A DNA stretch of 4,823 bases from a virus (taxonomy: Duplodnaviria; Heunggongvirae; Uroviricota; Caudoviricetes). How positions within the stretch are numbered: position 1 is the stretch's first letter; each line of letters begins with the position of its first letter. Below are positions 3,190 to 4,680 of the stretch, in pieces. The DNA is taken from IMG/VR virus record IMGVR_UViG_3300013741_000060. The stretch is one strand, 5' to 3'. The translations under genes were made by a program, and so were the position numbers. Below the pieces are notes generated by a model. That model ran no database searches and had not been told where the DNA came from. It was given only the letters and a program-made list of their open reading frames with translations.

Positions 3190-3555
3190 TCACTCCCGGA
3201 TTTTTTCTGCCAGACCGTCCGCCAGCAACGCAGGAACTGCGGCTTCATTAACCAGCACAACACTGGAGGCCCGGGCAAACATCAACATTTTTCCCGTCAC
3301 AGCATCACAGGCTGGCATATGCGCCGTTTTCAGCATACGCACCCGGGCGAGTCCCCGCTCAGAATGCATTCCGTCGCCGGATGCATCGTTGCCCACATCT
3401 TCCTTCCCTGTCTCCTCCCCATCAAATCCGGCGGCCTCCTCTTCCCATTCCGCCAGGCGCTGCTCAAGATCGGCTTTTGAACCTGAAATATCTGCTTCAC
3501 GCCCCAGAATCACTGCCAGTTCCTGCAAACGTTCAGTCATCTGCTCTTTTGTCAT
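3190..3555 (-). CDS. FI: Head assembly / DNA-packaging protein FI-like (lambda gpFI family)
   Basis: MTKEQMTERLQELAVILGREADISGSKADLEQRLAEWEEE parallels lambda gpFI MTKDELIARLRSLGEQLNRDVSLTGTKEELALRVAELKEE, followed by an acidic Gly-rich linker and a C-terminal domain as in gpFI. ATG 3555..3553 with GGGAGAG 7 nt upstream (listed ORF starts one codon earlier at GTG 3558). Stop TGA at 3192..3190, 2 nt before the FII ATG. Confidence 0.75.
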   Translation of the reverse strand: MTKEQMTERLQELAVILGREADISGSKADLEQRLAEWEEEAAGFDGEETGKEDVGNDASGDGMHSERGLARVRMLKTAHMPACDAVTGKMLMFARASSVVLVNEAAVPALLADGLAEKIRE

Positions 3556-3573
3556 CACATCTCTCCCGTGCGC

Positions 3574-3600
3574 TAAAGAAAAAGGCGGAATATCCCGCCC
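3574..3600 (-). terminator. Candidate rho-independent (probably partial) terminator directly downstream of the major capsid gene
   Basis: Minus-strand RNA 5'-GGCGGGAUAUUCCGCC-UUUUUCUUUA-3': a 5-6 bp GC-rich stem (GGCGG/CCGCC) with a 4-6 nt loop followed by a U-tract, starting 5 nt after the E stop codon and ending just before the FI ribosome-binding site. Confidence 0.4.
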
Positions 3601-3604
3601 CGTC

Positions 3605-4629
3605 TTATTTCACCTGAACCACCACAAACGCATCCGGATCCGGCAGCACCATCAACGGCGCAGACTGCGTCATGGTATATTCGCAACCAGGATCCCCCAC
3701 TTCCTCCCAGTGTTTCGGATAACGAATCGCAGAGGTGATCCCTTCACTCAGTGCCTGATTATCCTGAATGGCTCCATAACAACGGACGCCTTCCGCCTGA
3801 GTGTTCCCCAGAATCAGTGTACCTTCCGGCAGATAACGCTGTTCATCCCCGTTTTCGTCAACATACGTTGTCTTCGCCACCACAATTGCCAGATCGCCGT
3901 AATGGCCTTTAAAGGAAACCACGGNNNNNNNNNNCCCAGGTCTTTCAGTGCCGTTTCCAGCTCAGATTTGGAGCCACGGCGGGTATCCAGTTTTTCACGG
4001 AACAGTTTAAAACCGTTCAGCATACGCCAGACCGTGCCGTCCATAATCGCGATATTGATGGTGCCGGAAGCGAAATCGCTGTACGCATCCAGATCATGCG
4101 TCGGATCGAAGGTGTCAGCATTCTGCTGTGACCATTCGCGTCCGCCAGCCTGCGTAATGTTATTGGCGGCAGAACGCCCAAAATCCACTTCCACCGTCTC
4201 AAACTGCTCGCCGCTCATGGTGTATTTACCCTGCAGAACGGCACTGACCGCCTGCATTTCTTCCACCTGCACAATCGCCTGCTCTTCCTGTTTCAGGTTG
4301 TCCGTCAGAATACGCAGACGGCGGTAAGCCGGGTCATTAAGGCGAGCCGGATCTTCTCCCGGAAGACGTTCCACTGCNNNNNNNNNNNNNNNNNNNNNNN
4401 NNNNNNNNNNNNNNNNNNNNGTTTCACCACCACGGCTGCGCAGCACTTTGCCTGACACCACCGGAGACACATACGCCGCAACCGGTGTTTTGCCGGTAAT
4501 TTTATCCAGCATGACTTCCTGCGTATGGAAAGTGATCGTGCGACGAAAGAACAGCTCCAGAAACAGCGCACGAAAATTCACTTTCTGCTCGGTGTACCCG
4601 AGTAACTGACGCGTGGTAAATAACCCCAT
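3605..4629 (-). CDS. E: Major capsid protein (lambda gpE family); interrupted by N-runs 4378-4420 and 3925-3934, so listed ORFs 3814..4629 and 3605..3922 are two pieces of one gene
   Basis: MGLFTTRQLLGYTEQKVNFRALFLELFF...YVSPVVSGKVLRSRGGE...PGEDPARLNDPAYRRLRI...QVEEMQAVSAVLQGKYTMSGEQFETVEVDFGRS..NNITQAGGREWS...KLDTRRGSKSELETALKDL and ...KGHYGDLAIVVA...LGNTQAEGVRCYGAIQD...RYPKHWEEVGDPGCEYTMTQSAPLMVLPDPDAFVVVQVK are collinear with lambda gpE along its length. ATG 4629..4627 with AAGGA 9 nt upstream; stop TAA 3607..3605. The frame changes across the 10-N run. Confidence 0.92.
3925..3934. other. Run of 10 N (masked or assembly gap) inside E
   Basis: Seen directly; the E frame changes across it. 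Confidence 0.99.
4378..4420. other. Run of 43 N (masked or assembly gap) inside E
   Basis: Seen directly; E stays in the same coordinate frame across it. Confidence 0.99.
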
Positions 4630-4652
4630 AATTTATTTTCCTTCAGAAACAC

Positions 4653-4680
4653 AAACGGGCCGCATCGCGCCCCGTTTTTC
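4653..4680 (-). promoter_or_regulatory. Imperfect GC-rich stem-loop in the D-E intergenic region, just upstream of the E ribosome-binding site
   Basis: Plus strand AAACGGGCCGCATCGCGCCCCGTTTTT: arms AAACGGG/CCCGTTT plus an inner CGC/GCG with one C-C mismatch and a 3-nt loop. The T-run lies on the plus strand and the minus-strand 3' flank is only weakly U-rich (UUUGUGUUU), so function and orientation are unclear. Confidence 0.25.

Follow-up and report, generated by a model that had tools for sequence, protein, structure and literature searches.

A terminator-like hairpin of changing stem sequence after the major capsid gene E in lambda-type head modules

Intercistronic stem-loops such as the malE-malF REP hairpins protect upstream mRNA from 3' exonucleases. 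The hairpin described here, which lies between the major capsid gene E and the DNA-packaging protein gene FI of a lambda-type head module, is similarly a stable hairpin after a cistron needed in excess, and the fact that REP hairpins require no U-tract fits three classes of the E-FI hairpin that have no U-rich tail. REP hairpins are a repeated family, whereas the E-FI hairpin is single-copy, sequence-diverse and usually followed by a terminator-type U-tail. A further likeness is to T-phi of phage T7, a hairpin and U-run directly after the major capsid gene 10 and within co-oriented structural genes. As described for T7, read counts fall after T-phi while downstream genes are still expressed by read-through, and inefficient terminators are presented as balancing expression. 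T-phi is not homologous to the E-FI hairpin and acts on the single-subunit phage polymerase with no antiterminator, whereas the element studied here would act on host polymerase with Q, which should suppress termination: Q-modified polymerase is described as termination-resistant, with Q complexes bypassing intrinsic terminators. Terminator-like hairpins inside antiterminated phage late operons have already been noticed. In the P22-like phage L, an intrinsic-terminator-like site follows the capsid-building genes of a lambdoid late operon with Q-type antitermination, and either partial termination or the blocking of non-antiterminated transcription is proposed in that report for this procapsid-module terminator. 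Phage L differs in carrying a P22 coat gene rather than lambda E and another gene downstream, and its site was predicted without comparative analysis.

The closest relative of our element is the orthologous spacer of lambda (NC_001416, 7161-7201), in which the E stop codon is followed by 2 nt, the stem-loop AUGGCCC-UUCG-GGGCCAU, UGUUUCUCU, the Shine-Dalgarno sequence GGAGGAG and the FI ATG. In both cases E lies before the hairpin and FI after it, and lambda has its own hairpin between D and E (GCCGC-CUGU-GCGGC, then U7). The lambda E-FI element differs in its unrelated stem, its UUCG tetraloop and its weaker U-tail (discriminant 9.7, against 35.1 for the consensus of the family described below). 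A search of the available literature found no paper describing or testing the lambda E-FI or D-E hairpins.

The window analysed here is the full stretch of 4,823 nt, and the element was studied on its minus strand, which carries all of the recognisable genes (Table 1). As its genomic reference we used 42 kb around the best match, which is 98% identical (NZ_CP041422, strain STEC409; hereafter L002). Gene E of the window contains two masked runs of N, and its C-terminal part matches PF03864 (E = 1.7e-20); the homologue in L002 is full-length (342 aa, PF03864 E = 2.7e-65) and labelled "major capsid protein" by PGAP. Together with PF14000 and the PGAP labels in this prophage, these matches bear out the gene identities E and FI that had been proposed from the window sequence. 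Farther downstream, the two ORFs ahead of the baseplate genes have no Pfam match, and their L002 counterparts are hypothetical proteins according to PGAP. Runs of N at 357-366, 1316-1425, 3925-3934 and 4378-4420 break the ORF downstream of W, the baseplate V region and E, and ORF calls across them are unreliable. In a megablast search of complete E. coli genomes, the window region was found at 98% identity in STEC chromosomes, where the matching genes are annotated as head decoration protein, major capsid protein, gpFI and head-tail joining protein; the junction region was matched in about 2,000 of the 5,426 genomes.

The initial annotation started FI at GTG 3558 and thus gave an E-FI spacer of 46 nt. 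The start is most likely ATG 3555-3553, because this is the PGAP start in L002, it is suitably spaced from the Shine-Dalgarno sequence, and MTK is likewise the beginning of lambda FI. This start gives a spacer of 49 nt (3556-3604).

The transcriptional context of the element was taken from L002. Between 5700 and 35200, L002 is a Stx2e-converting prophage with a lambda-type head module (Nu1-like to FII) and a P2-type contractile tail. Its late genes lie on one strand in the order Q, three tRNAs, stx2e, lysis, terminase, portal, protease, D, E, FI, FII and contractile tail. The antitermination protein matches PF03589 (Antiterm Q, E = 1.9e-52) and the head genes are about 14 kb downstream of it. 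A scan of the window for sigma-70-like promoters gave no matches where 3.2 were expected, and late regions as a whole contain fewer promoter-like sites than shuffled sequence. As Q lies upstream, the genes share one strand and no promoter-like site was detected, E and FI are internal genes of one long Q-dependent late operon. Given the resistance of Q-modified polymerase to terminators, attenuation at the E-FI hairpin during lytic growth should be small.

A GC stem followed by a U-tract, beginning 5 nt past the E stop on the minus strand, had been reported for this spacer and is indeed there. Read along that strand, the E stop codon is followed by a 5-nt gap (GACGG), the hairpin, the U-tract, AGCGCAC, the Shine-Dalgarno sequence, AUGUG and the FI ATG. 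The core stem consists of six pairs (five G-C and one G.U) closed by a 4-nt loop, with an energy of -8.8 kcal/mol, and can be extended to eight pairs, three of them G.U (3601-3582). The tail contains 8 U in 9 nt and starts 0 nt from the core stem. The hairpin is intergenic, ends 28 nt before the FI ATG and is on the coding strand of all flanking genes. It remains stable when its flanks are included: the structure predicted by RNAfold is dominated by this hairpin whether the 46-nt spacer or a 141-nt context is folded. The site therefore combines the features of an intrinsic terminator, namely a G+C stem in the range of about 5-14 pairs, a U-rich 3' run, a positive discriminant and a co-oriented intergenic position. 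A terminator acting on the opposite strand or in both directions was rejected, as the plus-strand version has only five pairs and a poor T tail. An Rfam 15 search of the whole window (E <= 1) returned nothing at 3559-3604; its sole match, at 1131-1151, is irrelevant to the element.

Table 1. Positions of the genes and RNA elements of the window discussed in the text.
Feature	Position	Strand	Details
Major capsid gene E	3605..4629	minus	ATG 4629-4627, TAA 3607-3605
DNA-packaging protein FI gene	3190..3555	minus	PF14000, E = 1.4e-13
FII-like head-tail attachment protein	downstream of FI	minus	PF05354
Two ORFs (188 and 274 aa)	1520-2086 and 2083-2907	minus	between FII-like gene and baseplate V
P2-type baseplate proteins V and W	beyond the two ORFs without Pfam match	minus	
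E-FI hairpin, 5' arm GGGGCGGG	3594..3601	minus	G+C core GGCGGG, 3599-3594
E-FI hairpin, loop AUAU	3590..3593	minus	
E-FI hairpin, 3' arm UCCGCCUU	3582..3589	minus	core UCCGCC, 3589-3584; one C short of relatives
U-rich tail UUUUUCUUU	3575..3583	minus	directly after core stem
FI Shine-Dalgarno GGGAGAG	3561..3567	minus	5 nt upstream of ATG 3555; read from sequence
D-E spacer hairpin AAACGGGGCGC-GAU-GCGGCCCGUUU, then GUGUUUCUG	4644..4677 (hairpin 4677-4653)	minus	one G-G mismatch

The copy of the hairpin in the window is weaker than those of its relatives. Where all 62 other loci with the same type of stem read ...TTCCCGCC, the window reads ...TTCCGCC, with one C fewer. In L002 (20583-20603) and these 62 loci, the sequence ...AUAUUCCCGCC forms a perfect GGCGGG(A)/(U)CCCGCC stem of 6-7 pairs at -12.2 kcal/mol; loss of one C from the CCC run (3584-3589) weakens the window stem by about 3.4 kcal/mol and requires a G.U pair instead. 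This 1-nt deletion could reflect a true mutation or an artefact of sequencing through the homopolymer. The 46-nt spacer folds at -15.1 kcal/mol (z = -1.78), a stability equalled by 13 of 200 shuffles, and a core hairpin as good as that of the window occurs in 4% of shuffled spacers. Terminator prediction on the minus strand, suggested earlier as a check, placed the site first in a simple scan, which over-calls (10 sites in the window against 4.4 +/- 2.5 expected); the discriminant of the site is 18.9, against 35.1 for its relatives. For the window copy taken alone, chance is thus excluded only marginally. What removes this doubt is that hairpins recur at this position across 13 classes of unrelated stems, together with the shuffle tests on those classes; both are set out below. 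For the window itself, the feature is ordinary and expected, with a slightly damaged local copy.

A near-identity search of the phage collection gave no match. A more distant search recovered the E genes of lambda, 21, N15, phi80 and Gifsy-1, mostly with no alignment across the spacer, and for this reason the spacers were compared by extraction from a fixed position. Loci encoding relatives of the E C-terminus were collected from IMG/VR (68), from GTDB (62, found by alignment query with one genome per species) and from lambda, or about 130 in all. Each locus was anchored on the E stop codon and the downstream spacer was taken, with the hairpin core defined as a perfect stem closed by G-C. A G+C-rich hairpin soon after the stop codon was present in all 60 distinct spacers between E and the next gene, lambda included. 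Its distance from the stop is 3-12 nt in most spacers and reaches up to 36 nt in three longer ones, and it ends about 17-29 nt ahead of the next ATG.

The stems fall into 13 classes that have no sequence relationship to one another. They include the window type (GGCGGG/CCCGCC), the lambda type found in many enterobacterial genera (GGCCC-UUCG-GGGCC), GGGGC/GCCCC, CGGGGCC-GGAA-GGCCCCG, GGCGAGC-UGUGUGU-GCUCGCC, CGGGGGC/GCCCCCG with its double-substituted relative CGGGAGC/GCUCCCG, an 11-bp stem (GCACCACGGUC) and a 10-bp stem from a marine Amphritea contig. As the stems cannot be aligned between classes and were chosen as hairpins, covariation statistics across classes would be invalid; each class was instead compared with its own shuffles, and pairs were counted within the lambda-type class. 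For 12 of the 13 class representatives, no more than 3% of composition-matched shuffles had a hairpin as good. The exception, L127, has a bulged stem (-21 kcal/mol) that is under-scored by the perfect-stem measure.

In the window-type family, the stem and a nine-base U-tract are fixed, and variation is seen in the 5-nt stretch ahead of the stem, in the loop and in the bases beyond the U-tract: the loops of relatives read AUAUU, AAUAU, AUAAC, AUAUA or GAAA around a constant stem, and in the 11 window-type spacers of one alignment (A2) the U-tract is identical and the adjacent downstream sequence is not. The sole stem substitution in this family, a C to U change in eight loci, keeps a G.U pair, and does so only in RNA of the coding strand. 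In the lambda-type class, none of the five core pairs varies, and the two outer pairs have changed in a compensatory manner (UA to CG, n = 4; AU to GC, n = 2). Of the cells examined in this class, 96% are paired, compared with 33-59% when the 3' partner columns are slid by one to three positions. Because of these compensatory and G.U-preserving changes, and because stem and U-tract stay fixed amid variable flanks, the comparison indicates that the hairpin is a selected RNA-level structure tied to its position after E.

Two side observations were made on the same loci. In alignment A2, the variants of the 5-nt flank and those of the post-U-tract sequence are combined in several ways, which suggests recombination between E and FI modules within the invariant hairpin and U-tract core. 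In addition, about 20 short GTDB contigs (L079-L110) assigned to unrelated taxa (such as Bacillus-like, actinobacterial, Bradyrhizobium and Colwellia) carry an E-FI junction identical to that of lambda. These are most likely lambda control-DNA contamination of the assemblies, and lambda-identical GTDB matches, marine ones included, were collapsed into one sequence.

The U-rich tail is less widespread than the hairpin. In 8 of the 13 classes, T occupies at least 5 of the 9 positions that follow the stem; two further classes are intermediate, and in three (L062, L074 and L114) the tail is essentially absent. In L062 and L114 there is a T-run 5' of the hairpin, so that a terminator is formed on neither strand. 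The tails are rich in U specifically rather than in A+U, with T averaging 4.8 of 9 positions and A averaging 3.3 of the 9 that precede the stem, a weak excess (Wilcoxon p = 0.049, n = 13). Most lineages thus possess a full intrinsic-terminator signal, but only the hairpin is universal, and its retention in L062, L074 and L114 with no U-tail points to an RNA-level role of the hairpin itself. Terminator strength was estimated with a re-implemented discriminant of the d'Aubenton-Carafa type, which combines hairpin energy and a weighted U-tail using ViennaRNA energies. Beside the values for the window copy, the window-family consensus and the lambda E-FI hairpin already given, the lambda D-E hairpin scored 22.2, and lambda tR2, lambda t-oop, T7 T-phi, rrnB T1 and trpA t scored 22-52, a range that includes the window-family consensus; the scores serve for relative ranking only.

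The E-FI hairpin has a companion upstream. The D-E spacer of the window contains a hairpin that is interrupted by a mismatch (Table 1) and that forms a perfect 11-bp stem in L002. A hairpin with a U-rich tail is found at this position in lambda and most other classes, and its U-run is usually stronger than that after E (7-8 of 9). E is accordingly placed between two terminator-like hairpins. In the lambda Nu1-J block, intergenic terminator-like hairpins are found only after D and after E. The D-E and E-FI spacers also stand out by their length, since neighbouring genes elsewhere in the late region mostly overlap or abut. The late operon of L002 (about 28 kb) has at least 11 positive-scoring intergenic hairpins on the coding strand. 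Besides those that follow D and E, there are hairpins behind Q, where tR'-type sites are expected, flanking stx2e, around the lysis genes, ahead of the sheath gene and downstream of the tube gene. Hairpins follow the structural genes of highest abundance, which in L002 are D, E and tail tube; in the Nu1-J block of lambda, such hairpins follow D and E alone. Two strong hairpins on the minus strand of L002 are again associated with structural genes of high expression: one (12209-12226) immediately precedes the tail sheath gene and the other (14254-14271) immediately follows the tail tube gene. The latter has the top discriminant of the operon (42.5).

The reading that we prefer, tentatively and at slightly less than even confidence, is that the element is a conserved stem-loop of the intrinsic-terminator type marking the 3' end of the capsid segment in the Q-antiterminated late transcript, and that it would act mainly by 3'-end protection with a minor contribution from termination. 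During lytic growth, most Q-modified polymerases would read through the hairpin. Some RNAs would end at it, in part because a minority of polymerases terminate there, and more importantly because transcripts cut further downstream would be trimmed back to it by 3'-to-5' exonucleases. RNAs ending at the hairpin would gain a protected 3' end, and the message for D and E would outlast and exceed that for FI and the genes downstream; polymerases lacking Q would be stopped efficiently. In accordance with such a role, the hairpin is a stem-loop at the 3' boundary of an abundant cistron, present in all 13 classes including the three without a U-tail. A pure decay barrier would need no U-tract. As the window family keeps the tract unchanged and 8 of the 13 classes possess one, it is likely that real termination or an RNase E site has also been under some selection. 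Levels and decay of mRNA reportedly differ little along the lambda late operon, which would limit any effect on transcripts to a small or modest factor. The net direction would be that proposed in the initial annotation (capsid message in excess of downstream message), reached mainly post-transcriptionally and probably to a modest extent.

A related possibility, which we hold to be unlikely without being remote, is that the hairpins after D and after E are not terminators under Q at all. Together they would bracket E and define processed, long-lived D and E messages; the hairpin would be the selected component (13 of 13 classes) and the U-run secondary (8 of 13), for example as an RNase E entry site. 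If true, this would offer a general explanation for "terminators" in lambdoid late operons that are disregarded by the operon's own antiterminator.

The initial annotation had proposed a leaky terminator as a plausible control of capsid stoichiometry. In the pure form of this model, a substantial share of polymerases would stop after E, and transcripts of D and E would clearly outnumber those for FI, head completion and the tail. The first half of this proposal stands, in that the anatomy and positional conservation are those of a terminator-like element linked to the capsid gene. Its anatomy is complete and its discriminant is positive. The U-tract adjoins the stem directly and is fixed throughout the window family, and across classes the tails are rich in U rather than in A+U. 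T-phi, with its drop in read counts immediately after the T7 capsid gene, is a precedent, and partial termination is one of the roles suggested for the phage L site. A ratio of D and E to downstream transcripts set by leaky termination is not established, and we consider substantial termination improbable and favour 3'-end protection over strong attenuation for several reasons. First, Q is encoded upstream and Q-modified polymerase resists terminators. Second, at least 11 hairpins in series over about 28 kb of L002 would starve the distal tail genes if each were an efficient terminator. Third, the similar hairpin in the D-E spacer, if it terminated efficiently, would reduce the amount of E below that of D, and these two proteins are needed 1:1. 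Fourth, the hairpin outlives the U-tract in some lineages, namely the 3 of 13 classes noted above. Finally, Sampson et al. 1988, by its title, assigns the control of relative late-gene expression in lambda to translation initiation.

A different use of the same anatomy is a fail-safe insulator, in which the element would be a full-strength stop only for polymerases without Q, such as those arising from spurious initiation or read-in in the lysogen, and would keep the late genes Q-dependent. We regard this as quite improbable. Such a role is suggested explicitly for the intra-operon terminators of phage L, it would require the U-tract that is conserved here, and it agrees with the many terminator-like hairpins along the L002 late operon. 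It does not account for the restriction of hairpins in the lambda Nu1-J block to the sites after D and E, which encode the two most abundant proteins, nor for the three classes without a U-tail, and promoter-like sites in late regions are fewer, not more, than in shuffled sequence.

An action at the level of translation has a still smaller share of our confidence. The hairpin would either uncouple ribosomes terminating on E, a very heavily translated gene, from initiation at FI or shield the FI ribosome-binding site, with the U-rich stretch as an unstructured landing or enhancer region. The hairpin does always lie between a stop codon and the next Shine-Dalgarno sequence, the spacers concerned (D-E and E-FI) stand out by their length, and translational control is what the title of Sampson et al. 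1988 announces. However, such an action gives no reason for tails rich in U rather than in A+U, and for pairing of the U/C tract with the Shine-Dalgarno sequence, 20 of 21 representatives show no gain in stability over shuffled sequence. Sequestration of the FI Shine-Dalgarno sequence by the U/C tract does appear in the MFE and RNAalifold structures, as a helix of -3.6 kcal/mol, and was rejected as a candidate because about 60% of shuffles are as stable; the single exception among the representatives is L062 (0.04).

That the repeat has no regulatory function, being a chance inverted repeat or a recombination joint between head-shell and head-completion modules, could draw on the marginal statistics of the window copy and on the flank and downstream variants recombined around a fixed core in the window-type family, but is very improbable given 13 unrelated stems at the same position, which is beyond chance or sequence homology, and the compensatory and G.U-preserving changes.

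The step from a terminator-like structure to leaky termination is thus complicated by Q, by the D-E hairpin, by the classes without a U-tail and by the title of Sampson et al. 1988, and the competing mechanisms are inseparable by sequence alone. The element is more than a peculiarity of a single prophage. Lambda has it too, and because genetic and biochemical tools exist there, its role is directly testable. If the ratio of capsid to downstream message is truly shifted, the hairpin would be a compact, portable part for tuning expression within operons; if it is not, the conservation would still call for an explanation. What is added here to earlier sightings of such hairpins is breadth. In the loci compared, the hairpin is a positional rule of lambda-type head modules, always found after E and usually after D, with a stem sequence that changes freely.
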